Below are positions 15,078 through 37,216 of a stretch of 64,000 nucleotides of DNA, piece by piece. A program made the position numbers and the translations under genes. The notes under the pieces are model-generated. The model had not been told where the DNA came from. It ran no database searches and saw only the letters and a program-made list of their open reading frames with translations. This DNA comes from an uncultured Candidatus Berkelbacteria bacterium (GTDB lineage: Bacteria > Patescibacteriota > UBA1384 > XYA2-FULL-43-10 > CAINNR01). Location of the stretch: assembly GCA_903851235.1 (NCBI GenBank), contig CAINNR010000030.1, forward strand, positions 13,210-77,209, given 5' to 3'. Positions within the stretch are counted from its first letter, which is position 1. Each line of letters begins with the position of its first letter.

Positions 15078-15124
15078 CGGAAAGCGCGAAAATAATATAG
15101 AATTGGTGTAGATAGGAGGGGTCT

Positions 15125-16972
15125 ATGGCTGATGTTGGAAAAACTACCGGTGGTTCGCCGTGGGATGAACCACTACCCGAAGGTGCTGAAACTAAGAAAC
15201 CAATGCCGACAATCGTTGGTGATCTTGATGTTAGCAAAAATATTCAACAGGCGCAAACAGCCGAAAATCAGAAACCGACTGAATTAAAACTCCCGACCAA
15301 TACCGAGGAGAAAGTTGGCGCCAAAGTTGATGTTGCGGCTGAAACTCCGGTGATTACTCCGGCTCAACCGATTGCAACTTCGGCACCAAACGCTAATCCT
15401 AGCCCTCAAGTTGCACCAAAAGCCCCGGAGGCTAACTCCGATTTTTGGCAATCAATTTATGGACAAACCGCGAGCGCTCCGGTACCAACTGAAACTCTGG
15501 TTCCGAAACCAACTCAACCGGCGCAACCGAAACCGCTGGCTCCGATTGTGCCAACAGCAGTAACAAACATCATCAATCAGCCGCAACCTGTGGCATCAGC
15601 TCCCGCAACGACGCCACAAGTTCCAATCCGTCCAACGACTCAACAACCGGTATCTCAACCATCGGCACCGCTGCCAAAGGCAGATAATCTCGTGGCGCCT
15701 AATCAGAAAACAGCAAATAATCGAATTAAAACCTTTATTATTGCCGGCGTTGTCGGGGTCGTCATACTTTTCACTGGCGGAGTGTTTTTGACTGAAAAAG
15801 GTATAATTTCGATCGGTTTAGAAAAAATTTACGGCGCGATTCATCTTGATGCCATTTGGGGCGGTTTACCGGCCAACGCTGAAAACGCCTTCGCCATGTC
15901 TGCGTTGAAGATGAAAACGGAAAAAGGTTATAAAATATCGGGAAACGCGACAATCACCGTCAATAAAGGGGTAAAATCCGACTTAATCTCACCCATTGTT
16001 TCGACGGCCGGTAACCAAACATCCATCGACAGTCAGTCAACGGCGACAGAGAGTTCCGGTTTATCAACGGTTGAAGAGTTGACCACTGAAATTAACGCCC
16101 AAATTACCGATTCCGTCAGTGGCGTCGACATCAACATCAAATCAAGTGAAAACTCAAATTCTAAAATTCAGCTGGTTTATTCGAGCGACAAAATGTACTT
16201 GAAAACCTCGGACGATATTGTTTACGGCAGCCAAACAAAGGGTAGCTGGGCATCGTTAGATTTTAATAAATTTGGCAACGATAATCCAGGGCAAAGCTTT
16301 TTGGGTAGCCAATTTTCCGGTTCGGATTTCTCGATTGTCGGGAGTCGCGGTACGGAGGAAACAATTAACGGCGTTCGCTGCTTTCATTACACCGGTGTCG
16401 CGACCATTGGGAACGCCCTGCAAAATTTTGGTCTTTCGAATGACAGCATCTCCAGTCTGAACATGGATTACTGGCTTGGTACGAATGACCACTTTATCCG
16501 TCGGCTGACTATGAGAATTATTCCCGGAAGCAAGTCGGCTGTTTCCAGAATTGATATGACACTCGATTTTTCTGATTTCGGCAATAACTCTTCTGATTTT
16601 ATAATACCGGCAACTTCGACACCTTTCTCTGCTTCGGCATCAACATCATCAACAGTCGGGGCCAGAGATAATCAAAGAAAAACCGACCTCGCCAACATCG
16701 CTAAAGCTCTGGAGAGTTATCACACGGCTAACGGAGAATATCCGCAAGCGACGGGCACGGAAAAAATTTCACCGACATCTGGAACACTTTTTTCCAGTTT
16801 GGTTCCAACCTACTTATCTACACTACCACTTGACCCGAACGACCCAACCAATTATTATGGATATGTATCCGATGGCGCGAGTTATACGTTATCGTCTGTT
16901 TTGGAGGATAAAACCGACACATCGGGCAAACAGGTTGGGGCTAACTACTTGTATTTTCTTTCAAGTTTGTAA
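15125..16972 (+). CDS. large membrane-anchored protein: Pro/Ala/Thr/Gln-rich cytoplasmic N-terminus, single TM, extracellular region, C-terminal pilin-like domain
   Basis: GGAGGGG RBS. TM segment IKTFIIAGVVGVVILFTGGVFL. C-terminal RDNQRKTDLANIAKALESYHTANGEYP resembles the conserved segment that follows the N-terminal helix of type IV pilins and pseudopilins. Confidence 0.6.
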   Translation: MADVGKTTGGSPWDEPLPEGAETKKPMPTIVGDLDVSKNIQQAQTAENQKPTELKLPTNTEEKVGAKVDVAAETPVITPAQPIATSAPNANPSPQVAPKAPEANSDFWQSIYGQTASAPVPTETLVPKPTQPAQPKPLAPIVPTAVTNIINQPQPVASAPATTPQVPIRPTTQQPVSQPSAPLPKADNLVAPNQKTANNRIKTFIIAGVVGVVILFTGGVFLTEKGIISIGLEKIYGAIHLDAIWGGLPANAENAFAMSALKMKTEKGYKISGNATITVNKGVKSDLISPIVSTAGNQTSIDSQSTATESSGLSTVEELTTEINAQITDSVSGVDINIKSSENSNSKIQLVYSSDKMYLKTSDDIVYGSQTKGSWASLDFNKFGNDNPGQSFLGSQFSGSDFSIVGSRGTEETINGVRCFHYTGVATIGNALQNFGLSNDSISSLNMDYWLGTNDHFIRRLTMRIIPGSKSAVSRIDMTLDFSDFGNNSSDFIIPATSTPFSASASTSSTVGARDNQRKTDLANIAKALESYHTANGEYPQATGTEKISPTSGTLFSSLVPTYLSTLPLDPNDPTNYYGYVSDGASYTLSSVLEDKTDTSGKQVGANYLYFLSSL

Positions 16973-16993
16973 TAATAAGGTCTAGGAGTTAAT

Positions 16994-17548
16994 ATGACAG
17001 GTTTATGGATTATTGTTGGCATCATCGTATTATTACTAATCATCATTGCCTCGGTTTTTAATCGATTGGTGAGTTTAAAAAACCGTACCGATGAAGCCTG
17101 GAGCGACATTGACGTTCAACTGAAGCGGCGACATGATTTGATTCCCAATTTGGTTGAAATGGTCAAGGGTTATGCTAAACATGAAAAGGAAGTTTTTGAA
17201 AAAGTTACCGAAGCCAGAACTGCGGCAATTTCCTCCAAAGGTTTGGCTGAAAAAACTAAAGCCGAAAATCAGATCACTTCAGCCCTAAAATCGGTTTTTG
17301 CCGTAGCGGAAAATTATCCCGATCTAAAAGCCAACGAAAATTTCTTGGAGTTGCAACGCGAAGTTACTGATACTGAAGATAAAATTCAAGCCGCACGACG
17401 TTTTTATAACGGTAATGTTCGCGATCTTAATATCGCTATTGAAAGTTTTCCCTCAAATATTGTTGCCGGACTTTTTCATTATCAGAAAAAAGATCAGTTT
17501 GAGCTTGATGATGTTGCTGAACGTCAAAATGTTGAAGTTAAATTTTAA
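16994..17548 (+). CDS. lemA: LemA family membrane protein
   Basis: N-terminal TM, then LemA-type conserved region (WSDIDVQLKRRHDLIPNLVE...ENYPDLKANENF...ARRFYN). Confidence 0.85.
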   Translation: MTGLWIIVGIIVLLLIIIASVFNRLVSLKNRTDEAWSDIDVQLKRRHDLIPNLVEMVKGYAKHEKEVFEKVTEARTAAISSKGLAEKTKAENQITSALKSVFAVAENYPDLKANENFLELQREVTDTEDKIQAARRFYNGNVRDLNIAIESFPSNIVAGLFHYQKKDQFELDDVAERQNVEVKF

Positions 17549-17551
17549 AAA

Positions 17552-17623
17552 AAGTCAAAATTAAAAAGTAAAAATTCAAAATTATAGGTCAAAATTAGTG
17601 ATTATTAATTAAAATTTTGACTT
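17552..17623 (+). repeat. 11-bp inverted repeat (AAGTCAAAATT...AATTTTGACTT) in the lemA to DUF4870 intergenic region
   Basis: Exact reverse-complement arms about 50 nt apart. Contains TTGACT -35-like hexamers. Confidence 0.35.
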
Positions 17624-17664
17624 TTGACTTATAACTTTTGAGCTAATCAAAGAAGGGAGAAGTT

Positions 17665-18000
17665 ATGCCGGAGGAAAAGAAGGTTTCGAGTGATGAAAAC
17701 AATTTGGCGATGATCGCCCACATTTTGGGTATTGTCATCGGCTTCATTGGGCCATTGGTTATCTATTTAACCGCCAAGGACAAACCTTTTGCATACTCGC
17801 AATCAAAGGAGGCCTTGAATTTCCAGATTACAGTTTTGATCGCTTGGGTAGCTTGCGCAATTCTTTCGTTTATTGGTATTGGCTTCTTGCCTTTCGGCGC
17901 GGTTTGGGTGGTTAATTTGATTTTCTGTGTTTTGGGAGCGACAGCCGCCAGTAAGGGTGAAGCATATAAATATCCATTTGCGCTTCGTTTAGTTAATTAA
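17665..18000 (+). CDS. DUF4870-like small membrane protein (copy 1)
   Basis: AHILGIVIGFIGPLVIYL...KDKPFAYSQSKEALNFQITVLI pattern. Confidence 0.6.
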   Translation: MPEEKKVSSDENNLAMIAHILGIVIGFIGPLVIYLTAKDKPFAYSQSKEALNFQITVLIAWVACAILSFIGIGFLPFGAVWVVNLIFCVLGATAASKGEAYKYPFALRLVN

Positions 18001-18302
18001 TGGAGGTCAATTTGACCATCAAGCAGAAACTTTTGGCACTTTTATCGTATCTCTCAATTTTGTTGTTCTTCCCGCTGAATTTTATCAAAGGTGATGAATT
18101 TGTTCATTATCACGCAAAACAGGGCGTTGTAATGTTTGTGCTGGCAATTCTAATCGCCTTTACTTTTTGGATCCCTGTTGCCGGCTGGGTTTTTCTTTTG
18201 GCGTATTTGGTTATTTGGTTTACCGGAGTTCTTAATGCTTTGACCGGAAAATCAGAGCCAGTCCCGGTTGTTGGTAAAATCGCCGAGAGGTTGTCGATTT
18301 AG
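18000..18302 (+). CDS. DUF4870-like small membrane protein (copy 2, tandem paralog)
   Basis: LALLSYLSILLFFPLNFIKGDEFVHYHAKQGVVMFVLAIL pattern. TAATG stop/start overlap with copy 1. Confidence 0.6.
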   Translation: MEVNLTIKQKLLALLSYLSILLFFPLNFIKGDEFVHYHAKQGVVMFVLAILIAFTFWIPVAGWVFLLAYLVIWFTGVLNALTGKSEPVPVVGKIAERLSI

Positions 18303-18360
18303 TTTAGGCTTTTGTTTAGACCCGATGCTATCCGATCGAAATATTTGAATAATCTGTTCT

Positions 18361-18392
18361 AAAAAGATCGTTTGAAACGGTCTTTTTAGTTT
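18361..18392 (+). terminator. intrinsic terminator after the DUF4870 pair
   Basis: AAAAAGATCGtttgaaaCGGTCTTTTT followed by tag; the stem includes a G-U pair. Confidence 0.5.
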
Positions 18393-18453
18393 TGGAATAG
18401 ATTATTTGATATACTACTTTTGGCGCTATCACGAGAAAGGGAGGTATAGCTTT

Positions 18454-19131
18454 ATGCAGTTGCCAGTCTTAGTTGATGAATCAATGAGGCAAAGGTTCAT
18501 TGAAATTGGTGCGCTGAAGGTTGGTGGCCACTTTGTGTATTCGGGTGGTGGACATTGCGACGAATTTTTCGATTTTGAAGCCATCGTACCACGCTGGCCA
18601 GACATTATGTTCTTTTATAACAATCTTTGTGAAGGCATTAACGATCAGCGAATCAATACAGATGTTGTTATCGGTCCTGAGCGTGGTGGGATTGCATTGG
18701 CTCATATGACGTCATACTTTTTGGAGAAAACTGCCAATCGCCCTTGCCGTGGCATTTATGCCGAAAAAATTCGAGATGTGGAAGAGCGACGGTTGATTGG
18801 CTGTCGCTATAGGATTCCAGCAGTTTTTCTAAACTATCTGATTGATAGTACCGTTCTAGTTTTAGATGATATTGCTAACACCGGTGGCAACATTGCTGAA
18901 GTTGTTTCGCTTGTAAGGCAAGCTGGTGCCAAACAAATTATTGTCGCAATCATGATTAACCGGTGTTGTTTGACTGCAGATCAGGTTAGTGCTGATCGCC
19001 TTATTACAGTTGTTGAAATGCCAAATAAGGTTTGGAGCGCGGCTGATTGCCCGATGTGCAAGTCTCATATCCCGATTGACACGGAATTTGGTCACGGTGC
19101 TGAATTTCTAGCTTCACAGGCGGGCAAGTAG
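18454..19131 (+). CDS. type I phosphoribosyltransferase-domain protein (orotate-PRTase-like), C-terminal CxxC
   Basis: PRPP-binding motif VLVLDDIANTGGNIAE. GGGAGG RBS before ATG at 18454; the longer track ORF from 18406 has none. C-terminal CPMCKSH. Confidence 0.7.
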   Translation: MQLPVLVDESMRQRFIEIGALKVGGHFVYSGGGHCDEFFDFEAIVPRWPDIMFFYNNLCEGINDQRINTDVVIGPERGGIALAHMTSYFLEKTANRPCRGIYAEKIRDVEERRLIGCRYRIPAVFLNYLIDSTVLVLDDIANTGGNIAEVVSLVRQAGAKQIIVAIMINRCCLTADQVSADRLITVVEMPNKVWSAADCPMCKSHIPIDTEFGHGAEFLASQAGK

Positions 19132-19146
19132 TTTTGCCCGTTTTTT
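19120..19146 (+). terminator. intrinsic terminator
   Basis: GCGGGCAAgtagttTTGCCCG followed by tttttt. Confidence 0.6.
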
Positions 19147-19220
19147 CTATTGAAAAACGGTCAAGAAAAAGCTAAGATTGATTTAGTGTTTTCATTTTTT
19201 AGTTTTGACATTTAAAATTT

Positions 19221-19262
19221 AACTTTTAACTTTTAACTTTTAACTTTTAACTTTTAATTTTT
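19221..19262 (+). repeat. heptamer tandem repeat (aactttt)x5 plus one degenerate unit, ending 11 nt before the htpX start
   Basis: Six consecutive 7-nt units, five of them exact. The same unit is at 17616-17629 and its reverse complement (aagttaaa)x3 is at 3981-4007. Confidence 0.7.
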
Positions 19263-19273
19263 GAGTTATTTTT

Positions 19274-20164
19274 ATGAACATTTACGATCAAATCGGCAAC
19301 AACAAATTTAAAACCGTTTTTTATATCGGGGTTTTTCTGATTTTTATTATCGCCCTTGGCTGGCTCTTTTCTTACATTTATCATTCGCCAGCAATTTTAA
19401 TCATCGCCATAATTATCGCCGTCGTTCAATCAATGACCAGTTATTTCTGGGGTGATGTTGTCGCGCTAGCGATGACTCATGCGCAGGCGGCGAAAAAATC
19501 TGACAGCCCGGATCTTTTTCGTATTGTCGAAAATTTGGCGATTACCGCTGGCATTCCGGTGCCGAAAATTTATATTATCAACGATGATTCGCCGAACGCT
19601 TTTGCCACCGGTCGCGATCCAGAGCATTCATCGATCGCCGTTACCTCAGGTCTACTATCGATTATGGATAAAAATGAAGTTGAAGGCGTTATCGCTCACG
19701 AGCTTTCCCACATTGGCAATCACGATTCATTATTGATGGTGGTTATTGTGGTTTTGGTTGGTGTTGTGGCAATCGCTTCAAACTTGTTCTTCCGAGTCGG
19801 TTTTTGGGGCGGCTTTGGCGATGATCGCGAGAGTGGAAATTCTGGCGGAATAATGTTGATTATCGGAATAATTATGGCAATTTTGGCACCAATCGCCGCA
19901 ACCTTAATTCAACTGGCAATCTCTCGTAAACGGGAATATTTAGCCGATGCTAATGGCGCGCTTCTGACTCGTTATCCCGAGGGTTTGGCAAATGCGCTTA
20001 GAAAAATCTCGGCTTATAAACAACCGGTTCGTTTTGCTAACGACGCAACATCACTGCTGTTTATTATGAACCCAACAAAAAAACGCTCGTGGTTTTCCGG
20101 TTTATTCGACACTCATCCGCCGGTCGAGGAACGAATCAAAGCCTTGGAGGCAATGGCCGAATGA
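19274..20164 (+). CDS. htpX: membrane zinc metalloprotease HtpX (M48)
   Basis: HELSHI zinc motif, four TM segments and C-terminal FDTHPP. Confidence 0.9.
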   Translation: MNIYDQIGNNKFKTVFYIGVFLIFIIALGWLFSYIYHSPAILIIAIIIAVVQSMTSYFWGDVVALAMTHAQAAKKSDSPDLFRIVENLAITAGIPVPKIYIINDDSPNAFATGRDPEHSSIAVTSGLLSIMDKNEVEGVIAHELSHIGNHDSLLMVVIVVLVGVVAIASNLFFRVGFWGGFGDDRESGNSGGIMLIIGIIMAILAPIAATLIQLAISRKREYLADANGALLTRYPEGLANALRKISAYKQPVRFANDATSLLFIMNPTKKRSWFSGLFDTHPPVEERIKALEAMAE

Positions 20165-20179
20165 TCAGCTGTTCTAATA

Positions 20180-20207
20180 TTTACATTGGCAGATTTTCTG
20201 CTATACT
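20180..20207 (+). promoter_or_regulatory. sigma70-like promoter TTTACA-16-TATACT
   Basis: Both hexamers lie about 40 nt upstream of the GTG start of the next gene. Confidence 0.45.
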
Positions 20208-20246
20208 TTTTTTGTGATACAAATGCTTCACAAGGAGGCGGTTTCA

Positions 20247-20735
20247 GTGTCTAATGCAGATCGGGCTTATCAGGCGGGGATCAATGATTTGATTTGGATA
20301 TTAAATGTTGTTTCAGGACGAAGATTTATTTTTTGGGGGAAACCTCGACCTCGGGGAAGAGTATTAATTCGTGACATTAATCCACCGGAGTTTTGGAGGT
20401 TACCGGAAGTTGAGGCAATTGTTCGTTGGTCACAGATTCCGGCAAAGAATATCATTTTCATTCCAAGTGACGTTGATGATCTGCTCGGCGATCATCCGAT
20501 TGTAAGGTTGGTGGATTCTGGGTTGGCTGTGATTCGACGACCAATTTGCACTTTCTCACCAATTGGGTTTAGAATAGCTGATGCTGGTAATCGTTCAGCG
20601 GTAACGCTAATGACGCCAAATGATTCTGACCCGTCCCATCCGTTAATTTCCTCGATCACTGATCGGATGATGATCGGAGCCGTTATGAGTCAGGTTGACA
20701 GCGCTTTGGCGATGGGTGAAATGATTTTCAAGTGA
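20247..20735 (+). CDS. hypothetical protein (163 aa, GTG start)
   Basis: AGGAGG RBS 7 nt before the in-frame GTG at 20247. Has its own promoter and terminator. No family recognised. Confidence 0.5.
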   Translation: MSNADRAYQAGINDLIWILNVVSGRRFIFWGKPRPRGRVLIRDINPPEFWRLPEVEAIVRWSQIPAKNIIFIPSDVDDLLGDHPIVRLVDSGLAVIRRPICTFSPIGFRIADAGNRSAVTLMTPNDSDPSHPLISSITDRMMIGAVMSQVDSALAMGEMIFK

Positions 20736-20742
20736 CGTTTTC

Positions 20743-20768
20743 GGATGGCTATAACTGGCCATCCTTTT
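20743..20768 (+). terminator. intrinsic terminator
   Basis: GGATGGCtataactgGCCATCC followed by tttt. Confidence 0.55.
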
Positions 20769-20813
20769 AATATCAAAAATATTTTATGGTATAATTAATT
20801 AGGAGGAGAATCA

Positions 20814-21161
20814 ATGGAACTAAAAGATTATCAAAAATTTTGTCAGACGACTGCCGGAAATATGAGTGATGATCCGGAAAAGCAAATAATGGTCTGGGGT
20901 TTGGGTGTCGCCGGAGAGGCGGGAGACTTGGCTGGTTGCATAAAAAAGACCGTTGGTCACAAAAATGATCAAATTACCGGAATTCGGGAAAATCTTGGTG
21001 ACACAATGTGGTACATTGCCGAGATTTGTAATTTTTATCATTGGGATTTGAATGAAATTTTGTCGGAAAATGTTTCCAAATTAAAAAAACGCTATCCGAA
21101 AGGATTTGATGCCAAGCTGGTCAAACGCGACGGCAAAAGAATCGATTGGAATGAGAAATAA
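20814..21161 (+). CDS. MazG-like nucleoside triphosphate pyrophosphohydrolase domain protein
   Basis: GLGVAGEAGDLAG...ENLGDTMWYIAEI: the EExxE/D-type metal motifs of the all-alpha NTP-PPase family. Extended -10 TGgTATAAT at 20788-20796 and AGGAGG RBS. Confidence 0.75.
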   Translation: MELKDYQKFCQTTAGNMSDDPEKQIMVWGLGVAGEAGDLAGCIKKTVGHKNDQITGIRENLGDTMWYIAEICNFYHWDLNEILSENVSKLKKRYPKGFDAKLVKRDGKRIDWNEK

Positions 21162-21208
21162 TTGCTGATATAATTAATGTGTTAATAATAATTATCAGGG
21201 AGGAAATT

Positions 21209-21781
21209 ATGCCAGATGAAAAAAAGTCAGCGCCTGTAGCAACAACACCAGCTGCGGCGCCGGCAAAGAAAAACAACAGTACGATGATTATAATCATTGT
21301 CGTTGTTGCAGTTTTGGTTTTGGGAGTTGGTGGAACGTTGATTAGCCGATGGGTGGCGAGGAAAGCGGCGGACAAAATTGCCGGTGGAATTCTTGGCGCG
21401 GCAACTGGAAGTAATGTTTCAGTTAACTCCGATAGCGGAACAACCTCGGTTTCCAACGGTTCTGGTTCGACCTCGGTTGGCAACAATGTGGCGTGGCCAT
21501 CTGACATGCCGTCGACCGTGCCACAATTGAAATCCGGTACATTGACAATGGCAACATCGGACAAAACCAACAAGGCGTGGTCGGTCGAAGCCGACAAAGT
21601 TAGCCAAGCACAATTTGATGTATATAAAGCCTCGGTTGAATCGGCTGGTTGGACAAATACTGCCACTACTTCATTCGGCGCCAGTATGATTACCTACGAA
21701 AAAGATACTTACGACTTGACACTAATTTACGATGCGTCATCGAGCGGAGTTTCAATTTCGGTAACGACAAAATCGGAATAA
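21209..21781 (+). CDS. membrane-anchored hypothetical protein (N-terminal TM, Ser/Thr-rich linker, extracytoplasmic domain)
   Basis: GGGAGG RBS before ATG at 21209. TM segment MIIIIVVVAVLVLGVGG. The antisense ORF 21121-21666 in the track is rejected. Confidence 0.55.
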   Translation: MPDEKKSAPVATTPAAAPAKKNNSTMIIIIVVVAVLVLGVGGTLISRWVARKAADKIAGGILGAATGSNVSVNSDSGTTSVSNGSGSTSVGNNVAWPSDMPSTVPQLKSGTLTMATSDKTNKAWSVEADKVSQAQFDVYKASVESAGWTNTATTSFGASMITYEKDTYDLTLIYDASSSGVSISVTTKSE

Positions 21782-21796
21782 AATATCAGCTAAAAA

Positions 21797-21829
21797 TACC
21801 ACCGATTTTGGTCTGGTGGTATTTTTTTT
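21797..21829 (+). terminator. intrinsic terminator
   Basis: TACCACCgattttggtcTGGTGGTA followed by tttttttt. Confidence 0.6.
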
Positions 21830-21881
21830 ATCTTGACTAATTAGGTGCTATAATTAAGTCAGAATAATTAATAAATTTGTC

Positions 21882-22286
21882 ATGGATTTTGGACCACAAG
21901 ACGTACCCAAGCCCAAAGATTTGCAATCGCTGAAACGTGAAATCAGTTCTTTGGTATCAGAGAAATTTTCCGAGAAAACAATTGATTCTCGCTCGGTTTA
22001 TTCTGGTATTAAAGACAAACTCGGAGTCGAAAACATTGACGATCAAATGCTAAATTTTGCTATCAACTCGGCGGTCGAGGAGATTACAAAAGCGAAAAAA
22101 ATTGATAAACCGTTGTCTGCTGGCGAATTACAAAGACAGGTGGATTTGGTTGTCAATTGGGCGCTGATAAAAATCAAGGGAAAAAACAGTGAGCAAATTG
22201 GCCAAATCAACAGCACTGGGACAAAAGACATTGACTTTGGCAGTGGTGGCGATACAATCGTTTTGAAAGATTTCAAAATTAAGTAA
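21882..22286 (+). CDS. hypothetical protein (134 aa)
   Basis: ORF preceded by extended -10 TGcTATAAT at 21846-21854. No family recognised. Confidence 0.5.
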   Translation: MDFGPQDVPKPKDLQSLKREISSLVSEKFSEKTIDSRSVYSGIKDKLGVENIDDQMLNFAINSAVEEITKAKKIDKPLSAGELQRQVDLVVNWALIKIKGKNSEQIGQINSTGTKDIDFGSGGDTIVLKDFKIK

Positions 22287-22311
22287 TTCAAATTAATAGG
22301 ATGGAGGAAAA

Positions 22312-22671
22312 ATGAAAAAGTTGAACCAGATTTACAAATGTAGCACTTGTGGTAACATTGTCGAAATTGTTACCGGTGGTGGTGGAGAATTGGTTTGTTG
22401 CGGAGCGCCGATGGAATTGCAAAGCGAAAAGTCCGGCGAAGAAGGGATGGAGAAGCATAAACCGGTGATTGAAGAATCAATGGTTTTGGTTGGCTCGGCC
22501 CCACATCCGATGGAAGCTGAACATCACATTGAGTGGATTGAAGTTTTGGAGGGTGATGATGTTTGCAGGAAAGTTTTATCGGTTGATGACAAACCGCAAG
22601 CGGAGTTTTGTAACAAAGATATCAAAGTCGCCCGCGCATATTGTAATATTCACGGACTGTGGAAAAACTGA
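22312..22671 (+). CDS. dfx: desulfoferrodoxin (2Fe superoxide reductase)
   Basis: N-terminal desulforedoxin CxxC...CC (KCSTCGNIVEIV...LVCCGAPM). C-terminal neelaredoxin-like H-rich domain (EKHKPVIE, HPMEAEHHIEWIEV, C, H). GGAGG RBS. Confidence 0.85.
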   Translation: MKKLNQIYKCSTCGNIVEIVTGGGGELVCCGAPMELQSEKSGEEGMEKHKPVIEESMVLVGSAPHPMEAEHHIEWIEVLEGDDVCRKVLSVDDKPQAEFCNKDIKVARAYCNIHGLWKN

Positions 22672-22734
22672 CCGTTGGTCAGAAAAATGAAATTCCAATT
22701 CTTATTTATCACGCAGATTTTCGCTGATAAAAAA

Positions 22735-22754
22735 CTACGCCAATTGTGGCGTAG
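22735..22754. terminator. hairpin CTACGCCAattgTGGCGTAG, T-run on the minus side (terminator for the 22774-23229 gene; weak for dfx)
   Basis: Perfect 8-bp stem. Followed on the minus strand by tttttt. Confidence 0.5.
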
Positions 22755-22773
22755 GTGGAATTTGGTCTTTGCT

Positions 22774-23229
22774 TTAGAAGGCAAGTTGTTGTATCAATAA
22801 TTCTTTATGATCGCCGAAACTCTGAGAAAGCGCAACACAGAATTTTAACAATTCCTCAATGTCATTGCCGGCAAAGATGCCAGAAGGATCAAGGCAGATT
22901 GCTTGCAAAATACACAGTTTTGACGTAAGTTCGGCACGCAATTTTGGAAAGACGGTTCCAACGGTACCATCGTCACCGGCACGGTATTGGTATTCAAGCG
23001 CCTGTGAAACGATCGAAAATTCGCCATTGTACCATGACACTTGAATAAGATGATAATCTTTAGCACCTTCACCCAATACTTGGCTGACATTGCAGAGCCA
23101 GCTTAACAATGGTTCCAGATGTTTAGAGATATCTACCATGTTGATTTTCCCGAGTCTGATATTGTCAACGTCGATCATTGCGGCTGTTACAATCCGAGAC
23201 ATTTCGTCAACTTCACTCAGATCGAGCAT
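22774..23229 (-). CDS. hypothetical protein (151 aa), divergent from the heliorhodopsin operon
   Basis: GGGAGG RBS 6 nt before ATG at 23229. Confidence 0.55.
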   Translation of the reverse strand: MLDLSEVDEMSRIVTAAMIDVDNIRLGKINMVDISKHLEPLLSWLCNVSQVLGEGAKDYHLIQVSWYNGEFSIVSQALEYQYRAGDDGTVGTVFPKLRAELTSKLCILQAICLDPSGIFAGNDIEELLKFCVALSQSFGDHKELLIQQLAF

Positions 23230-23268
23230 CTCGCTTACCTCCCGCTTGGGAATGTTGTTGCAATCAGC

Positions 23269-23295
23269 TTAACAAAAAGTATATATCTTTGTCAA
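23269..23295. promoter_or_regulatory. palindromic operator-like motif copy 1 (TTAACAAAAAGTATATATCTTTGTCAA)
   Basis: Imperfect dyad around TATATA. Near-identical copy at 25105-25131, on the other side of the heliorhodopsin locus, also in a divergent promoter region. Confidence 0.35.
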
Positions 23296-23319
23296 AATAT
23301 TAGCTTTTTGGAGATAAAA

Positions 23320-24018
23320 ATGTCAGAAATTATTGACCCAAACGAACGTGAACACTTGGTATTAAAATATGGTGAGCAAATAAAAAACATTGTTGGTTAT
23401 AACGATCTCTCGCCTGAGGAACAGCGAGATTTGCGATACGACCCACGCAAAGATGTTTCAGTTGGACTGGATAAAATTTTCTGTCATAACGTTTATAATC
23501 GGGAAGACGGTAATTTTGCGATCGAACAATCCGGAGATGATACTTTGTTTATCGCCTATGTCCTTTCGGTTTTGGGTTTGCGTGATGGCAGGGCGCTTTT
23601 GAAATCCTATGAACGAATGGCGCCGGCGAATCAGGGTGTGGATCTGAAACAGTTGAAAGTAGAATCGGAGACAATCGATCATTCCGTTGTTGAACACTTT
23701 CTGGAAGAATTTGAGAAATCAAGGATGGATTTAACCGCAGAATTTGATGATGGTATGGATTTGGAGAACTCAACTCGATCGGAGGATATTAAACAATACT
23801 TGCGCGGTTTGATAATCTCCGGATCGTGTTTGAAACATTGTGAGATCTTGTTGCCGTTTTTTAGCCCAGAGCAGACAGCCCAAGTTGAGGAAATTATTGG
23901 AACTGTTATCGAAATGAGAAAAAAAAGAAATGACGACTTTGCAAAAAAGATAAATAATGAGGCAAAAGAGAGAAGAATTGCCGGCTTGGTAAATAAAATC
24001 GACGTTATTGATAATTAA
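23320..24018 (+). CDS. hypothetical protein (232 aa), immediately upstream of heliorhodopsin and probably co-transcribed
   Basis: GGAG RBS before ATG at 23320. The 23119 start in the track overlaps the divergent gene. Stop lies 15 nt before the heliorhodopsin RBS. Confidence 0.55.
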   Translation: MSEIIDPNEREHLVLKYGEQIKNIVGYNDLSPEEQRDLRYDPRKDVSVGLDKIFCHNVYNREDGNFAIEQSGDDTLFIAYVLSVLGLRDGRALLKSYERMAPANQGVDLKQLKVESETIDHSVVEHFLEEFEKSRMDLTAEFDDGMDLENSTRSEDIKQYLRGLIISGSCLKHCEILLPFFSPEQTAQVEEIIGTVIEMRKKRNDDFAKKINNEAKERRIAGLVNKIDVIDN

Positions 24019-24033
24019 TTTAGGGAGGAAAAA

Positions 24034-24795
24034 ATGGAGAAAAAATTGCAAGGGTTGCGGAAATTTAATTTGTTTATGGCGCTTTTGCATTTTGGCCAAG
24101 GAGTGGCGATGCTTTGGCTGTCCAGCAGTTTCAAATTACCGGTGATGAGTTCGTATTTGAAGTTTGATGTTGCGACTAGAACATTACAACCAAATCCATC
24201 AACATTATTCAGTTTGAAAATTGGCCCAATGATTGCGATTTTTCTCTTTCTGTCGGCTTTGGCTCATCTTTTAATCAGCACGGTTTTTAATGATTGGTAT
24301 AATAAAAATTTAGCTCGCGGTATCAATTTTGCTCGCTGGATCGAGTACTCCTTTTCGTCATCAATTATGATTATTGTCATAGCCATGCTGGTTGGAGTTT
24401 ATGACATCGGTGCGCTCATCCTCTTATTTGTTTTGAATGCGACAATGATTTTGTTCGGATGGATGATGGAACTTCATAATCAGTCGACTTCAAAGACTAA
24501 TTGGACATCATTCATTTTCGGTTGTATCGCCGGTTTGGCGACTTGGGTTGTAATTGCTCTTTATCTTTTTGGCTCCGGCGACAGCGCTCATCATGCGCCA
24601 AATTTCGTTTACTGGATTTACTTTTCAATCTTTATCTTTTTCAACTGCTTTGCCATCAATCAAGTTTTGCAGTACAAAAAAGTCGGATCGTGGAAGGATT
24701 ATCTATACGGCGAACGCGCCTACATTATTCTGTCATTGATTGCCAAATCACTTTTAGCCTGGCAAGTTTTCGCCGGCACTTTGCGACCAATGTAA
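24034..24795 (+). CDS. heliorhodopsin (7-TM retinal-binding photoreceptor, inverted topology family)
   Basis: Seven TM helices. Strong similarity, recalled from memory, to heliorhodopsin 48C12: FNLFMALLHFGQG; RWIEYSFSSSIMIIVIA with the counter-ion Glu; NATMILFGWMME; FIFGCIAGLATW; FNCFAINQVLQYKKVGSWKDYLYGERAYIILSLIAKSLLAWQVF with the Schiff-base Lys. GGGAGG RBS. Confidence 0.85.
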   Translation: MEKKLQGLRKFNLFMALLHFGQGVAMLWLSSSFKLPVMSSYLKFDVATRTLQPNPSTLFSLKIGPMIAIFLFLSALAHLLISTVFNDWYNKNLARGINFARWIEYSFSSSIMIIVIAMLVGVYDIGALILLFVLNATMILFGWMMELHNQSTSKTNWTSFIFGCIAGLATWVVIALYLFGSGDSAHHAPNFVYWIYFSIFIFFNCFAINQVLQYKKVGSWKDYLYGERAYIILSLIAKSLLAWQVFAGTLRPM

Positions 24796-24804
24796 CAAAT
24801 AAAT

Positions 24805-24825
24805 AAGGTGAGCCTTGCTCACCTT
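24805..24825. terminator. bidirectional hairpin AAGGTGAGCcttGCTCACCTT between the convergent heliorhodopsin and 24832-25062 genes
   Basis: Perfect 9-bp stem with a 3-nt loop. AT-rich flanks on both sides. Confidence 0.55.
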
Positions 24826-24831
24826 ATGTGT

Positions 24832-25062
24832 TCAGTACCCAAACCAAGTATGAAACCTTTCGGACTTTCCATTATCGAATTTAAGGTAATCAATGTCTGC
24901 ACCGTCTTCTTTGATAACCGCTATAATACCTTCCCTAGTGTTCGTCATTTCCAACTGACCGTAACCCCCATTAGATGGCTCACAATCGATGATTGCGATC
25001 AATGGTAATTTAAGCTGTTCTGCCCTTCGCAGAATTCTGGCGAGAATTTCTCCGGTTATCAT
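24832..25062 (-). CDS. small hypothetical protein (76 aa)
   Basis: AAGGAG RBS 8 nt before ATG at 25062. The longer track ORF to 25320 has no RBS. Confidence 0.45.
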   Translation of the reverse strand: MITGEILARILRRAEQLKLPLIAIIDCEPSNGGYGQLEMTNTREGIIAVIKEDGADIDYLKFDNGKSERFHTWFGY

Positions 25063-25104
25063 GCCAGTGTCTCCTTGGTTCAGGTGGTTCGTCACTGTGA
25101 TGAG

Positions 25105-25131
25105 TTTAACAAAAAATGTATATTTTATCAA
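25105..25131. promoter_or_regulatory. palindromic operator-like motif copy 2 (TTTAACAAAAAATGTATATTTTATCAA)
   Basis: Matches the 23269-23295 motif at about 22 of 27 positions with one indel. Confidence 0.35.
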
Positions 25132-25156
25132 TGGTTTTAAATAAAAGAGAGGCAAC

Positions 25157-25357
25157 ATGACATCTGACCAATTGCCAGTTTGGTTTTCGGTTGTGATTTT
25201 AGTTTTAACCCTTTGGAGTTTGCCGTGGAAGGGAATCGCACTTTGGAAAGCGGCAAAAAACAACGACATCGCCTGGTTTGTTATAATGATGATTGTTAAT
25301 ACCATCGGAATATTAGACATCCTCTACATTTATATTTGGGGCAAGAAAAAAGCCTAA
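25157..25357 (+). CDS. small two-TM membrane protein (DUF5652-like)
   Basis: LWSLPWKGIALWKAAKNNDIAWFVIMMIVNTIGILDILYI pattern. Confidence 0.55.
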   Translation: MTSDQLPVWFSVVILVLTLWSLPWKGIALWKAAKNNDIAWFVIMMIVNTIGILDILYIYIWGKKKA

Positions 25358-25502
25358 TTTCGTCGCCCCGGTTGACATTATCATTTAAAAAGTGTACTAT
25401 AATAGTATACAAATATTGTTTGGTAGCATTTCTCCGGCTAAATTTGAGGGAGATCTAACGAAACAATTGTTAATCTGATTGTTGTTTTTTTAATTTAAAA
25501 AC

Positions 25503-27314
25503 ATGGAACTGCGAAATATTGCAATTATCGCCCACGTCGATCATGGGAAAACCACACTAGTTGATGGTTTTTTAAAGCAATCTAAAACCTTTCGCGACAA
25601 CGAAGCTTATATGGAACAGGATCTTATTCTCGATTCTAACGATCAGGAACGTGAGCGGGGAATCACGATTTTGGCGAAAAACACGGCGATCAATTATCGT
25701 GGTGTCAAAATCAATATTATCGACACTCCAGGCCATGCCGATTTTGCAGGTGAAGTTGAACGAACGCTAAATATGGCGGAAGGCGCAATTTTGGTCATCG
25801 ATGCCCAAGAAGGACCAATGCCGCAAACGAAATTTGTTTTGAAAAAAGCTTTTGAACTCGGGCTGAAGATCATTGTTGTGATAAATAAAATTGATAAAAA
25901 GAGCGCCGATATTGAGAAGACTATTAACAACACTTATGATTTGTTTTTGGATATGGCGCAAACCGACGATCAACTAGAATTCCCAATTTTTTACGCTCTC
26001 GGTCGGGAGGGAAAATCTTGGAGTGAAATGCCGGAAAATACCGATTCTGATGCTGATTTAACCCCGATCTTGGACGCCATCATCGACTATATTCCAGCAC
26101 CGGAGAAGAATGATGACAAGCCTTTTCAAATGCTGGTTTCGGCGCTCGATTATGACAACTTTATGGGAAAATATGCCGTTGGAAAAATTAAAAATGGTGT
26201 TGTTAAATCGGGTCAACCGGTGATTTTATTGGATGCCGACGGTGTAATCGGCAACGGAAAAATCGAAAAAATCTATCTTAACTCAGGAATGAAAAAAGTT
26301 GAAGTCAATGAAGCTTCATCCGGCGATATTGTCTCAATCGCCGGTATCAAAAATGCTACCATCGGTTACACTGTTGCTGACCCATCGAATCCGCTGGCTT
26401 TGCCGGCGCCGGCGATTGAAGAGCCGACACTGCGGATCTCAATTTATGCCAATACTTCACCATTTGCCGGTCGTGAGGGAAAATTTGTTACCGCCCGACA
26501 ACTCCTAGATCGAATCAAAAAGGAGTTGGAAACCAATGTCTCAATGAGACTTGATGCGTCACAAGATGGAAATTATATTTTATCCGGTCGCGGCGAACTG
26601 CATCTTTCCGTATTTATTGAAAATTTGCGTCGCGAAGGCTTTGAACTTCAAGTCGGCAAACCGGAGGTAATTACAAAAGTCATTAATGGCGTTCTTTCGG
26701 AGCCGACGGAGGAATTAACAGTTGATGTAAAGAGTGATTTTGCCCAAACAGTCATTGGGGAAATTAGTCGAAGACGGGGAATGCTAATTCATCAAAATGA
26801 AAATCCTGATGGCACAACCAGATTGGTTTTCGAAATTTCGACTCGCGGAACGCTTGGACTCAGAAATGCCTTAATGACGGCAACAAAAGGAACGGCGGTT
26901 ATCAACTCGCTATTTTTGCGATACTCTCCGGTTGGTCCGGCGTTACCGAAAACCAGAAGCGGAGTTTTGATTGCTTTCAGCCCGGGAAAAACAGTTGCCT
27001 ATGGACTAAATATCGCCCAACAACGCGGCGTTACATTTATCCCGCCACAAACCGAGGTCTACACAGGCATGATTGTCGGGATTACTCCAACCGAGCGAGA
27101 TATGGAAATTAATGTTACCAAAGAAAAACAGCTGACAAATGTTCGGGCGGCAAGTTCAGATATGATCACAATTTTGACGCCACCGACAATATTATCACTT
27201 GAACAGTGTATCGATTTTTTGGAAGATGATGAACTTTTGGAGGTTACGCCAAGTTCTTTGCGACTGAGAAAAAAGATTTTGGATGCAACTCAGCGAAATC
27301 GAGCCAGAAAATAA
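25503..27314 (+). CDS. typA: translational GTPase TypA/BipA
   Basis: G-domain [10 protein letters not shown] and [11 protein letters not shown]-like domains. Confidence 0.95.
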
Positions 27315-27454
27315 ATTGAAGTAATTACACAGATTCGTGACACAGATATTGTGTAAATAAATCCGAAACAATTTGTCATTGCGAGTCAGCAGACGTGGCA
27401 ATCTATTTTAGACGAACTGGTTTCCTTTTTGGTATAGATTGATATAATAAGCCT

Positions 27455-27988
27455 ATGGACAAACCCGATGCCAAAAAATTGCAATTAAATAACTATGCCT
27501 TTATCGACGGGCAGAATCTTAATCTTGGAATTAAAGAACTTGGCTGGAAATTAGATCTAAAGAAATTCAGAAAATATCTGGAGGATAAGTATCAAGCCAG
27601 AAAAGTGTATTACTTTATCGGCTATATCGACGGAAATCAGGTTTTATATCAAACACTTCAAGAATACGGATATATTTTGATTTTTAAGCCAACTTTAGAA
27701 GGTCCGGGTGGGAAAATCAAAGGCAATTGTGATGCCGAGTTGGTACTTCACACAATGATTGAATATCCAAATTATCGTCAGGCGGTTATTGTTACCAGTG
27801 ATGGTGATTTTGCCTGTCTAGTCGATTATCTGATTGAGAAAGAAAAATTAAAAACAGTTCTCGCTCCTAGCAACAAAAAATATTCTTCACTTTTGCGAAA
27901 AAGTACCAGAGGAAGGTTTGTAGCTTTCATGGATGTTTTAAAGAACAAACTTATTTATAAAGCTCAAAAAAAGAAAAGGACCCCTTAG
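27455..27988 (+). CDS. NYN-domain (LabA-like, PIN-fold) protein
   Basis: YAFIDGQNL...VTSDGDF acidic motifs typical of NYN. TATAAT 6 nt upstream of ATG, a leaderless-type arrangement. Confidence 0.75.
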   Translation: MDKPDAKKLQLNNYAFIDGQNLNLGIKELGWKLDLKKFRKYLEDKYQARKVYYFIGYIDGNQVLYQTLQEYGYILIFKPTLEGPGGKIKGNCDAELVLHTMIEYPNYRQAVIVTSDGDFACLVDYLIEKEKLKTVLAPSNKKYSSLLRKSTRGRFVAFMDVLKNKLIYKAQKKKRTP

Positions 27989-28083
27989 GGACAAAACCCG
28001 TCTGGAGCCTTTTCGTAGTGATTCTGTTACAATTATATCAAATGAAATAAATATGTCAATAGACTTAAAAATTGGGAGAAATA

Positions 28084-31100
<3,017 letters not shown>

Positions 31101-31105
31101 AAAAA

Positions 31106-31125
31106 GTCCCGCGGATGAGCGGGAC
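31106..31125. terminator. hairpin GTCCCGCggatgaGCGGGAC, T-run on the minus side (terminator for the 31141-31722 gene)
   Basis: 7-bp GC stem flanked by A-runs on plus, which read as T-runs on minus. Confidence 0.55.
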
Positions 31126-31140
31126 AAAAAATAACCAGAA

Positions 31141-31722
31141 CTAGTCTTCTCGGAATGCTTTTATGCCGAAAAGTCCTTGACAGTATTTACATTGGGCGGC
31201 TTCAAGTGGTGTGGTGCCTTGGGTCGGAAACAAAACTCTGCGATCAACAACGTGTAATCCTGTCGGAGACAGTTGGCATCGTTGGCATTGCTCAATCGGC
31301 AAAATGATCGATGGTATTTGTTCAGGCTGCCTGCCTTCAACCACCTCAAGGACGATCACGACCTCTCTATTTTCTTCGCTTTTGTTTCTCCACAGACTGT
31401 AGGTTTTTTGGTCGCTACTCAATTCTCTCAAAGCTTCTAAAAGAGTCACAATCTGAATTCCGTCTACCAATGAAAAGTCTTCCATTCTCCAGAATCTAGG
31501 ATCTTCCAGTTCTTGATTGGTAAGGCGAAGCAATTCTCCTCCGGGAGCGGTTCTGACGATTTCAGTTGTCGGAAGCAATTGATTGTCACTCAGAAAAAAG
31601 ACGGGGAAAATGACAACGTTTTGATCCTGCTCTTGAGAGATAAGAATCTGTCCATTTAGATGGCAACAATCGATTGCCGTCGGAACAGAGTAAGGTGCAT
31701 AATTTCTCGTTCTGCGAATCAT
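31141..31722 (-). CDS. hypothetical protein with C-terminal CxxC...CxxC zinc-ribbon-like motif (193 aa)
   Basis: ORF with its own terminator. CQRCQ ... CKYCQ near the C-terminus. Confidence 0.5.
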   Translation of the reverse strand: MIRRTRNYAPYSVPTAIDCCHLNGQILISQEQDQNVVIFPVFFLSDNQLLPTTEIVRTAPGGELLRLTNQELEDPRFWRMEDFSLVDGIQIVTLLEALRELSSDQKTYSLWRNKSEENREVVIVLEVVEGRQPEQIPSIILPIEQCQRCQLSPTGLHVVDRRVLFPTQGTTPLEAAQCKYCQGLFGIKAFRED

Positions 31723-31801
31723 CTCGTCACCTCTGTCCTCGTATTAGGTTCGCGAGCAAAGTGTAGCAAAATTTTAAATATTTATCAAGTGCCATCGGTT
31801 G

Positions 31802-31830
31802 TTGAAAAAAAATCATGCTAGTGCTAGAAT
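31802..31830 (+). promoter_or_regulatory. sigma70-like promoter TTGAAA-17-TAGAAT for gatC
   Basis: Hexamers at 31802-31807 and 31825-31830. Lies inside the N-terminal extension of the track ORF 31799. Confidence 0.45.
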
Positions 31831-31840
31831 ACGATTAAAT

Positions 31841-32155
31841 ATGGTTGATAAAAATATAAAATCAACGAATAATTCTTGGGTTGCGAATGTTGCCCAACTA
31901 GCTCGGATTGAACTCACCAATGCCGAGGAAACCAAATTTGCCGGCCAGCTCGGCGCGGTTTTGGAGAATTTTGAACTCTTAAATCAAGTTTATACCGACA
32001 ATGTCGAAATTACCGCTCAGGTCACCGGGCTGACCAATGTTTTTCGCTCCGACGAAGTAAAAAATCCCGCTGGTAAAAAATCCCGCGACGAACTTTTATC
32101 AAATGCACCGGAAGTAGAAGACGGTTCGATAAAAGTCCCAGGAGTTTTTCAATAA
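31841..32155 (+). CDS. gatC: Asp/Glu-tRNA(Asn/Gln) amidotransferase subunit C
   Basis: VAQLARIELTNAEETKFAGQLGAVLENFELLNQV is typical GatC. Start placed at the ATG downstream of the promoter. Stop overlaps the gatA start. Confidence 0.8.
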   Translation: MVDKNIKSTNNSWVANVAQLARIELTNAEETKFAGQLGAVLENFELLNQVYTDNVEITAQVTGLTNVFRSDEVKNPAGKKSRDELLSNAPEVEDGSIKVPGVFQ

Positions 32156-33633
32156 TGACTGATTTATATAAACTAACAATTTCGGAAGCGGCGAAAAAGC
32201 TGAAAACCGGCGAGATTACCTCGCTGGATTTAACGCAATCCTGTTTGGATCGAATCGCCGAAGTTGAGCCGAAAATTCAGGCGTTTATTACCATTTGCAA
32301 CCAATCGGCAATTTCGCAAGCGAAGGAAAGTGATAGGCGTAGAACTGAAAACAAACCGCTTTCCGACCTCGACGGAGTTCCTTTTGCCGCCAAGGATTTG
32401 TTTTGTACCAAAGGAGTTTTGACAACGGCGGCTTCAAAAATTCTTAATGATTTTGTCCCCGATTTTGAGTCAACGGTGACAAAAAAATTGCTTGACGCCG
32501 GTTGTGTGCTTTTAGGCAAAACCAATCTTGATCAATTTGCAATGGGTTCATCAACTGAAACTTCGGCCTACAAAACGACAAAAAATCCTTGGGACTTGGC
32601 TCGCGTTCCCGGTGGATCGTCGGGTGGCTCGGCTGCTGCTGTTGCGGCCGATGAATGTATTTTTTCTTTGGGCACCGATACTGGCGGTTCAATCCGTCAG
32701 CCGGCATCGCTTTGCAGCGTCGTCGGACTAAAACCAACCTACGGTCGAGTCAGCCGATACGGCGTAATCGCAATGGCGTCGTCGCTTGATACCATCGGTC
32801 CGATCACCAAAACTGTTGAAGACGCGGCGATTGTGATGAATGTCATCGCCGGAATTGATGATAAAGACTCAACAACACTGCCGAATAAAACTCCGAATTA
32901 TAAAAAATCATTGGCCGGTGACATCTCCGGTTTGAAAATCGGAGTTCCAAAAGAGTTTTTTGGTCAAGGCATGAACAGCGAAGTTGAAAAGATCGTTCAA
33001 AGTGCGATTGATTTTTACCGGAGAAACGGCGCAGAAATTGTCGAAGTTTCTTTACCTCATGTAAAATACGCCCTTTCTGTCTACTATATTATTATGCCGG
33101 CGGAGGTCGCTTCGAATTTAGCCAGATTTGATGGTATCAGGTACGGTTATTCAAAAATCAAGAACCAAAAATCGGCGATAAAAAATCTGGAGGATGTTTA
33201 CATTTCCAGTCGAACCGAGGGTTTCGGCGATGAAGCCAAGCGGCGAATAATTTTGGGTAATTATGTTCTGTCCTCCGGTTATTACGACGCCTATTACAAG
33301 AAAGCTCAGCAGGTCCGAACTTTGGTCAAGAAAGATTTTGAAAAAGCTTTTGAAAAAGTTGATATTTTAATTACGCCTGTTTCACCAACCGCGGCTTTTA
33401 AAATCGGCGAAAAAACCGATGACCCGATGCAAATGTATTTATCGGATATCCACACGGTGCCAATAAATCCTGCCGGAGTGCCGGCAATTTCAATTCCCGC
33501 CGGTTTCACACTTGACAACTTGCCGGTTGGAATCCAAATCATCGGTCCGCATTTGGCTGAAGAGTCAATTTTCAAAGTCGCCAACGCTTTTCAACAAGCA
33601 ACTGATTTTCATCAAAGAAAGCCAAAAATTTGA
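32155..33633 (+). CDS. gatA: Glu-tRNA(Gln) amidotransferase subunit A
   Basis: Amidase signature GGSSGGSAAAVAA and catalytic Ser/Lys context. Confidence 0.95.
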   Translation: MTDLYKLTISEAAKKLKTGEITSLDLTQSCLDRIAEVEPKIQAFITICNQSAISQAKESDRRRTENKPLSDLDGVPFAAKDLFCTKGVLTTAASKILNDFVPDFESTVTKKLLDAGCVLLGKTNLDQFAMGSSTETSAYKTTKNPWDLARVPGGSSGGSAAAVAADECIFSLGTDTGGSIRQPASLCSVVGLKPTYGRVSRYGVIAMASSLDTIGPITKTVEDAAIVMNVIAGIDDKDSTTLPNKTPNYKKSLAGDISGLKIGVPKEFFGQGMNSEVEKIVQSAIDFYRRNGAEIVEVSLPHVKYALSVYYIIMPAEVASNLARFDGIRYGYSKIKNQKSAIKNLEDVYISSRTEGFGDEAKRRIILGNYVLSSGYYDAYYKKAQQVRTLVKKDFEKAFEKVDILITPVSPTAAFKIGEKTDDPMQMYLSDIHTVPINPAGVPAISIPAGFTLDNLPVGIQIIGPHLAEESIFKVANAFQQATDFHQRKPKI

Positions 33634-33635
33634 TC

Positions 33636-34682: not shown

Positions 34683-34688
34683 CAAACC

Positions 34689-36077: not shown

Positions 36078-36290
36078 CTATCCAATTAAGGAAGTGCGAA
36101 CTTCGCACGTTTCATTCAGCGATTTGCTACCAATGAAGTATCTGTAGTAAGTATAACAAAGTGTGATAAAGTATGTCAATAGTCTAACAATAAAAAAATG
36201 GGAGGCGTTGCGACGTGACACGTAGTCAAGCGTTCGTTTGATCCTAGCATATCAAACTGTAAAGTAGTTTTTTCAAACTAAGGGAGAAAA

Positions 36291-36332: not shown

Positions 36333-36336
36333 AATA

Positions 36337-37213: not shown

Positions 37214-37216
37214 GAA

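Follow-up and report, generated by a model that had tools for sequence, protein, structure and literature searches.

The 64-kb stretch of contig CAINNR010000030.1 analyzed here (hereafter the window) contains an open reading frame (ORF) of 253 codons, which a preliminary description had singled out as the gene of a heliorhodopsin (HeR). The gene lies downstream of an ORFan on the same strand and upstream of a short convergent gene, from which it is separated by a hairpin (Table 1). With its T-run on the minus-strand side, this hairpin resembles a terminator that would chiefly serve the minus-strand gene but might stop transcription in both directions. In GC content (0.39-0.41), the HeR gene is comparable to the remaining window.

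Table 1. Features of the HeR locus and other annotated genes of the window (L numbers denote loci compared with the window)
Feature	Window position	Strand	Basis
Desulfoferrodoxin (superoxide reductase), 1.4 kb upstream of HeR	22312..22671	+	Pfam PF06397 and PF01880; TIGR00320, 149.5 bits (cutoff 146.9)
ORFan, 151 residues, divergent from the ORFan-HeR pair	22774..23229	-	Gene call
Sigma-70-like promoter match (consensus only), divergent intergenic region 5' of the ORFan-HeR pair	23269..23298	+	Promoter scan
ORFan, 232 residues, acidic, soluble	23320..24018	+	Gene call in L001-L003; stop 15 nt 5' of HeR start
Shine-Dalgarno-like ribosome-binding site GGGAGGA	24023..24029	+	Read from sequence; GGAGG core ends 5 nt 5' of HeR ATG
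HeR coding sequence, 253 residues plus stop, ATG start	24034..24795	+	ORF, PF18761, NF038020, PDB matches, residue map, model and Foldseek
E104 codon	24343..24345	+	Within HeR coding sequence
Thr170 codon	24541..24543	+	Within HeR coding sequence
K238 (Schiff base) codon	24745..24747	+	Within HeR coding sequence
11-bp hairpin separating HeR from the 76-residue convergent gene	24803..24827	none	Terminator scan
Convergent ORF, 76 residues, downstream of HeR	24832..25062	-	Gene calls in L001-L005; no NCBIfam match
DUF5652, small protein of 66 residues with two transmembrane segments	25157..25357	+	Pfam PF18893, E 5.4e-22
NuoF-like subunit	54075..55073		Window ORF scan
[FeFe]-hydrogenase	55039..56817		Window ORF scan

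The protein matches the Pfam family PF18761 Heliorhodopsin over the whole profile (E 1.5e-105, 352.3 bits for a gathering cutoff of 26.7, positions 1-242 of 242), the NCBIfam equivalog model NF038020 'heliorhodopsin HeR' (357.6 bits, cutoff 100) and, in a PDB sequence search, every solved heliorhodopsin, all far beyond chance. The HeR observation is thus confirmed, and the ORF is a genuine, intact and full-length heliorhodopsin of the TaHeR/48C12 type. The PDB matches extend over residues 3-252 for TaHeR (6is6, E 1.6e-81) and for 48C12 (6su3, E 3.1e-61), and the eukaryotic Cv06 (9vfc) is also found (E 1.9e-41). The preliminary description had likened the protein to 48C12 along its whole length. 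This likeness holds over residues 3-252 at 45% identity, but the protein is nearer to TaHeR (54.5% over 244 aligned residues) than had been assumed.

Consistent with this assignment, an AlphaFold2 model computed with an alignment of 37 sequences (predicted local distance difference test score 80, predicted template modelling score 0.75) contains the seven transmembrane helices that had been announced (residues 3-30, 63-83, 99-119, 125-151, 157-180, 190-215 and 220-249), together with the long beta-hairpin typical of HeRs in the AB loop (residues 34-62, strands 34-45 and 50-62). In Foldseek, the best match of the model is 6is6 (template modelling score 0.87, 53% identity), 6su3 scores 0.84, and type-1 rhodopsins score 0.5-0.65 with 10-16% identity. 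Moreover, the type-1 rhodopsin model PF01036 has no match to the protein at E <= 0.1, and the type-1 DxxxK motif is absent, a Ser and not an Asp standing four residues ahead of the lysine of the seventh helix. The count of Lys and Arg residues, 12 on the N-terminus and the BC, DE and FG loops versus 4 on the AB, CD and EF loops and the C-terminus, predicts by the positive-inside rule the inverted topology with a cytoplasmic N-terminus, which is the orientation that defines the family.

Regarding the active site, the family-defining residues listed in the 48C12 structure paper (PMC7049168) were mapped on an alignment of the query with 48C12, with TaHeR and with its 120 nearest homologues in the database. 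Of the 42 sites so mapped, 40 carry the same residue as in 48C12 and 37 do not differ among the three proteins. The two exceptions with respect to 48C12 are Leu168, in place of Ile170, and Thr170, in place of Pro172, a helix-E residue which makes a pi-bulge described as characteristic of HeRs. The peptides on which the preliminary description relied are all present, i.e., RWIEYSFSSS from residue 101, NATMILFGWMME from 135, FNCFAINQVLQYK from 203, GERAYIILS from 226 and SLIAKSLLAWQVF from 234, and the two key positions that it had placed in the third and seventh helices align as expected. Indeed, the Schiff-base lysine is K238, within the SxxxK motif S234-L-I-A-K238 (S237/K241 in 48C12, S234/K238 in TaHeR), and the glutamate counter-ion is E104 (E107 in 48C12, E108 in TaHeR). 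The two serines holding the counter-ion (S74 and S108, for S76 and S111 of 48C12), the histidine pair (H19 and H78, for H23 and H80) and the remaining water-filled Schiff-base cavity (N12, Y89, N98, R101, Y105 and E227, for N16, Y92, N101, R104, Y108 and E230) are retained, as are the Glu149 cluster (E146, W102, Q210, Q213 and Y223, for E149, W105, Q213, Q216 and Y226), the AB-loop proline (P36, for P40) and the surface cluster (Q22, S239 and W243, for Q26, S242 and W246).

Among the 120 nearest homologues scored, no variation is seen at K238, E104, S234, H19, H78, S74, S108, N98 and R101, nor at W102, Y105, E227, Y89, E146, Q213, Y223 and Q210, while N12 is kept in 117 of them, the remaining three being gapped. 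The lysine of the seventh helix is likewise invariant in 80 genome loci. Position 170 is a Thr in 50 of the 120 homologues but in only 2 of the 80 genome loci, 77 of which have a Pro. The residues lining the lateral fenestration (F160, C164, G167, F203, N204 and A207) are all kept as a sequence motif, G167 and F203 being invariant in the 80 genome loci. Of note, two HeRs, those of loci L028 (8001..8759) and L055 (1044..1799), have a Leu at both conserved His positions (H19L and H78L in query numbering) along with W102F and S108T, while retaining the lysine and the glutamate counter-ion, which suggests a variant Schiff-base cavity.

The comparison with the two structurally characterized proteins can be further refined. 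TaHeR, from the Thermoplasmatales archaeon SG8-52-1 (PDB 6IS6, 7U55), shares with the window HeR its length class, the SxxxK motif, the Glu counter-ion, both His and residues I199, F203, N204 and A207, although its host is an archaeon and that of the window HeR a bacterium belonging to the Candidate Phyla Radiation (CPR). The rim of the TaHeR fenestration, formed by A200 and F172, is replaced by F200 and L168, resembling the tighter opening of 48C12; M210 of TaHeR is Q210, as in 48C12, and Pro174 is Thr170. With 48C12, the founding member of the family (PDB 6SU3, 6UH3), the whole Schiff-base cavity is identical, whereas the AB loop of the window HeR is two residues longer.

The host can be placed from the gene order. 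When a single genome was scanned for each species, the best loci came from a Berkelbacteria metagenome-assembled genome (MAG) of Lac Pavin (L006, HeR 85% identical), from a Patescibacteria MAG (L007, 81%) and from the complete 915-kb Berkelbacteria genome GW2011_GWE1_39_12 (L008, 77%). Since the order M48 peptidase, hypothetical gene hyp200, HeR, DUF5652, TypA and LigA is common to the window, L006 and L007, the window originates from a Berkelbacteria-type CPR bacterium, an identity toward which the presence of DUF5652 was also counted. The 49 other ORFs of the window that were scanned fit a reduced genome of fermentative type, as had been proposed, and comprise translation, secretion and cell-division genes as well as the glycolytic tpiA, gap, pgk, fba and iPGM; the desulfoferrodoxin and the [FeFe]-hydrogenase of the preliminary description were both found. 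Scans of the window for tRNAs and Rfam families returned nothing.

Such a protein in such a host has precedents. Patescibacteria are among the HeR-bearing monoderm phyla (Bulzu et al., 2021; PMC8612252), and a screen of 1326 CPR genomes yielded 115 rhodopsins in 86 genomes, mostly HeRs, with the class UBA1384 among the carriers and SLIAK among the three commonest motifs of the seventh helix (Chiriac et al., 2022; PMC9166423). The NCBI taxonomy places 'Candidatus Berkelbacteria bacterium UBA1384' as a Berkelbacteria genome. The nearest named relatives (76-85% identity) are entered at NCBI as 'heliorhodopsin HeR [Candidatus Berkelbacteria bacterium]', the NF038020 model would name the window protein automatically, and an identical protein is already present in NCBI and ENA, on contigs of up to 78.7 kb. 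Given the curated family model, the published HeRs from CPR and UBA1384 genomes and the identical database entry, the window HeR is already known in kind, lineage and sequence, and it adds little to existing knowledge. Belonging to the same family and super-phylum as these published CPR HeRs, it differs from them in its upstream neighborhood, which is unique to the strain.

The role of a HeR has been pinned down only where a neighbor revealed it, i.e., a glutamine synthetase (PMC9529153), a photolyase (PMC9769723) or an ATP-binding cassette (ABC) exporter (PMC11109279). The neighborhood was therefore examined closely. Among the ORFs of at least 100 residues (plus the 66-residue DUF5652 protein) scanned over about 10 kb on either side of the HeR gene (14613..36077), there is no glutamine synthetase, photolyase, ABC exporter or histidine kinase, the nearest ABC pair being FtsE/FtsX (10468..12183). 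When all ORFs within 4 kb of HeR were clustered across 81 loci, no neighbor family occurred in more than 12 of them; the commonest, a generic ABC ATPase (12 of 81), is not near the window HeR, and of the shared families only hyp200 occurs in the window. No conserved partner is thus encoded beside this HeR. DUF5652 was considered for this role and set aside, as it adjoins HeR in only three of the 81 loci (jackhmmer), i.e., the window, L007, where it starts 35 nt after HeR, and L016. In the Chloroflexota loci L058, L079 and L083, HeR lies about 1-3 kb from a short-chain dehydrogenase gene and from folate/pterin biosynthesis-like genes (GTP cyclohydrolase I-like, dihydroneopterin aldolase-like and HPPK-like, labels given by sequence inspection only), which could be a lineage-specific association.

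Upstream, the interval between hyp200 and HeR holds a block (21882..24018) made of a 134-residue ORF with no match, the desulfoferrodoxin gene, the 151-residue ORFan on the minus strand and the 232-residue ORFan. Both L006 and L007 lack the whole block at the syntenic position; the interval is therefore a variable hotspot and the adjacency of desulfoferrodoxin to HeR is strain-specific. Indeed, desulfoferrodoxin was found at no fetched locus except L001, a contig of the same strain. A light-triggered response to photo-oxidative stress, the role favored in the literature for CPR HeRs, fits this nearby superoxide reductase only loosely. For the 151-residue ORFan, a word-index search gave no relatives; one homologue, 35% identical, is encoded just downstream of HeR in L006, and two cases were deemed too few to interpret as a partnership. 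The 232-residue ORFan has no Pfam or NCBIfam match and finds itself alone among 5.8e9 proteins, while an exhaustive HMMER search of 1.84e9 representatives gave four other matches, three of them at E <= 1e-10. Its 45% identical relative adjoins ligA and its 32% identical relative adjoins an unrelated gene, while the corresponding slot is occupied by an 834-residue surface protein in L006 and by two minus-strand membrane proteins in L007. It was rejected as a conserved HeR transducer, being an ORFan, missing next to HeR in L006 and L007, and having remote relatives that do not adjoin HeR. Its co-transcription with HeR is nevertheless plausible, because its stop lies so close to the HeR start and the sole promoter-like site is upstream of the pair.

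Regarding the chromophore, the window contains no retinal-synthesis gene, in agreement with the preliminary description: among the 49 ORFs scanned against Pfam, there is no blh, crtB, crtI or crtY family match. A weak Lycopene_cycl match concerns a flavin adenine dinucleotide (FAD)-dependent protein (33630..34682), the only isoprenoid-type enzyme of the window, which belongs to the geranylgeranyl-reductase family (TIGR02032, 164 bits, cutoff 158.8) and is not a cyclase. TaHeR has been reported to take up external retinal through its lateral fenestration, and Saccharibacteria, the one CPR group examined for retinal synthesis, are without blh and thought to obtain retinal from their hosts (PMC9296517). 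With no carotenoid or retinal pathway in the window, its general lack in CPR genomes and presumably host-derived retinal in Saccharibacteria, a scavenged chromophore is the most economical reading, and retinal would most likely be taken from a host or from the environment through the lateral fenestration. The type-1 rhodopsins of Saccharibacteria (SacRs; PMC9296517) offer a parallel, as CPR rhodopsins without blh and with presumably host-derived retinal. They are, however, DTS proton pumps which conserve energy, whereas the window protein, a HeR, has the inverted topology and lacks hallmarks of transport.

Taken together, we consider it highly probable that the window encodes a canonical HeR of the TaHeR/48C12 type which serves, in a Berkelbacteria-like CPR bacterium, as a non-pumping photosensor or regulator using scavenged retinal. 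By analogy with the characterized proteins, K238 would bind all-trans retinal covalently in a protonated Schiff base, which would be balanced by E104 as single counter-ion and hydrogen-bonded to S234. Light would isomerize the retinal to the 13-cis form, and the Schiff-base proton would move to the internal water-filled cavity (H19, H78, N98, R101, Y105 and E227) and never be released, as described for 48C12 (PMC7049168). The resulting long-lived intermediate may change the protein surface and so modulate a partner protein, with no movement of ions.

Several points weigh against this reading. Retinal binding, the photocycle and the absence of transport are all carried over from proteins that are 45-55% identical, and the Thr at position 170 departs from the helix-E proline considered typical of the family. 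The negative result on retinal genes covers 64 kb of the genome, and a pathway elsewhere is possible. In addition, no conserved neighbor backs a particular downstream pathway, and the link to oxidative stress suggested by desulfoferrodoxin is strain-specific. Finally, according to the record titles of L006, L008, L009, L012, L037, L043 and L058, close HeR relatives were recovered from Lac Pavin (70 and 90 m depth), from Rifle and other groundwater, from anaerobic digester bins and from a South African mine sample; these possibly dark habitats fit light sensing awkwardly, even if the retinal lysine is kept in all the relatives concerned.

Among the alternatives, the protein might be a light-regulated helper of one of the kinds already demonstrated, i.e., a regulator of glutamine synthetase, of photolyase or of an ABC exporter. 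These roles were established for actinobacterial and Firmicutes HeRs (PMC9529153, PMC9769723, PMC11109279) and the recurrence of an ABC ATPase gene in the 81 loci would accord with the last of them; since all these genes are missing from the 10 kb around the window HeR, whose immediate neighbors are ORFans differing among its closest relatives, we regard such a function as unlikely. Somewhat more doubtful is a two-antenna light harvester, with an exogenous xanthophyll at the lateral fenestration and light capture, not sensing, as its main role. A preprint makes this proposal for the whole HeR family and reinterprets the fenestration as a carotenoid site (Kornilov et al., 2025), its motif being defined, in 48C12 numbering, by opposed aromatic residues at 162 and 206, small ones at 166 and 210, Gly169 and Asn207. 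In the alignment, the 48C12 set F162, C166, G169, F206, N207 and A210 corresponds exactly to the conserved fenestration residues given above, including the two that are invariant in the 80 genome loci, so that the sequence motif is complete in the window HeR. However, the evidence in the preprint consists of docking and sequence statistics and not of measured binding, the same residues also serve retinal entry, and a HeR that does not transport has no known output by which energy is conserved.

A more radical departure would be that the protein is not a light sensor and acts as a receptor or scavenger of host-derived retinoids or carotenoids, or signals through the strain-specific 232-residue ORFan. 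The rationale is that an oxygen-sensitive, fermentative CPR episymbiont with possibly aphotic relatives keeps its HeR under strong purifying selection; we nonetheless hold this improbable. Equally hard to favor is a lineage-specific signaling pair in which the co-transcribed ORFan would be the soluble transducer of HeR: the two genes share strand and tight spacing, each with its own ribosome-binding site, with a promoter-like site only 5' of the pair, and they are retained together in all contigs of the strain, but the variability of the hyp200-HeR interval, the absence of the ORFan beside HeRs as close as 85% and 81%, the location of its 45% and 32% relatives and the rarity of its matches make this improbable as well. 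Ion transport, as a proton channel or pump like the viral V2HeR3, has been observed for some HeRs (PMC9448325), in contrast with TaHeR and 48C12, whose extracellular half is entirely hydrophobic (PMC9448325) and with which the window protein groups. The hallmark E191 of V2HeR3 is Ile199 in the window HeR (I199 in TaHeR), its gate Trp195 is Phe203 and its E205, a Glu or Gln site in the V2HeR3 group, is Gln213; a transport role is therefore very unlikely. The last alternative, that of a decaying or mis-binned gene, either a relic of horizontal transfer or part of a contaminant contig, could draw on the variable, ORFan-rich block that flanks HeR. Yet the ORF is intact with every key residue kept, its GC content is that of the window, and it sits in a contiguous 64-kb run of CPR housekeeping genes, where the TypA and LigA synteny is common to related MAGs. 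Furthermore, the comparison with the closest relative (L006) gives a pN of 0.109 and a pS of 0.808 (non-synonymous and synonymous differences per site, respectively), hence a pN/pS of about 0.13, this ratio being used and not dN/dS since synonymous sites are saturated against all relatives but one. These values indicate strong purifying selection; the gene is therefore no relic, and we give decay or mis-binning next to no weight.

The window HeR is one more example of a HeR kept by genome-reduced CPR bacteria apparently without retinal synthesis, and it supports the published idea that the chromophore comes from hosts or neighbors. A fermentative genome of about 1 Mb represents a small search space for the partner of HeR, though the window locus, devoid of a conserved neighbor, makes the question of HeR function no easier than many other HeR loci.

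Other parts of the window deserve mention. The amidotransferase genes gatC-gatA and gatB are split (31799..38632) by five unrelated genes, which encode the geranylgeranyl-reductase-family FAD protein, a cyclophilin, a DUF3800 protein and two ORFs with no match. The FAD protein gene overlaps the gatA stop by 4 nt, and an isoprenoid reductase stands, for no evident reason, inside an amidotransferase operon in a CPR genome. Similarly, the row of glycolysis and hydrogenase genes (tpiA, gap, NuoF-like, [FeFe]-hydrogenase, pgk and fba; 51071..60017) is broken by two genes, one with a Bro-N domain (52892..53524) and one of the RhuM family (56833..57945), both of types which are usually phage- or island-borne. 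Finally, an open frame of more than 1324 codons (60027..64000), with an N-terminal transmembrane segment, runs off the end of the window, and its N-terminus resembles the 834-residue surface protein encoded directly upstream of HeR in L006 (3722..6226).

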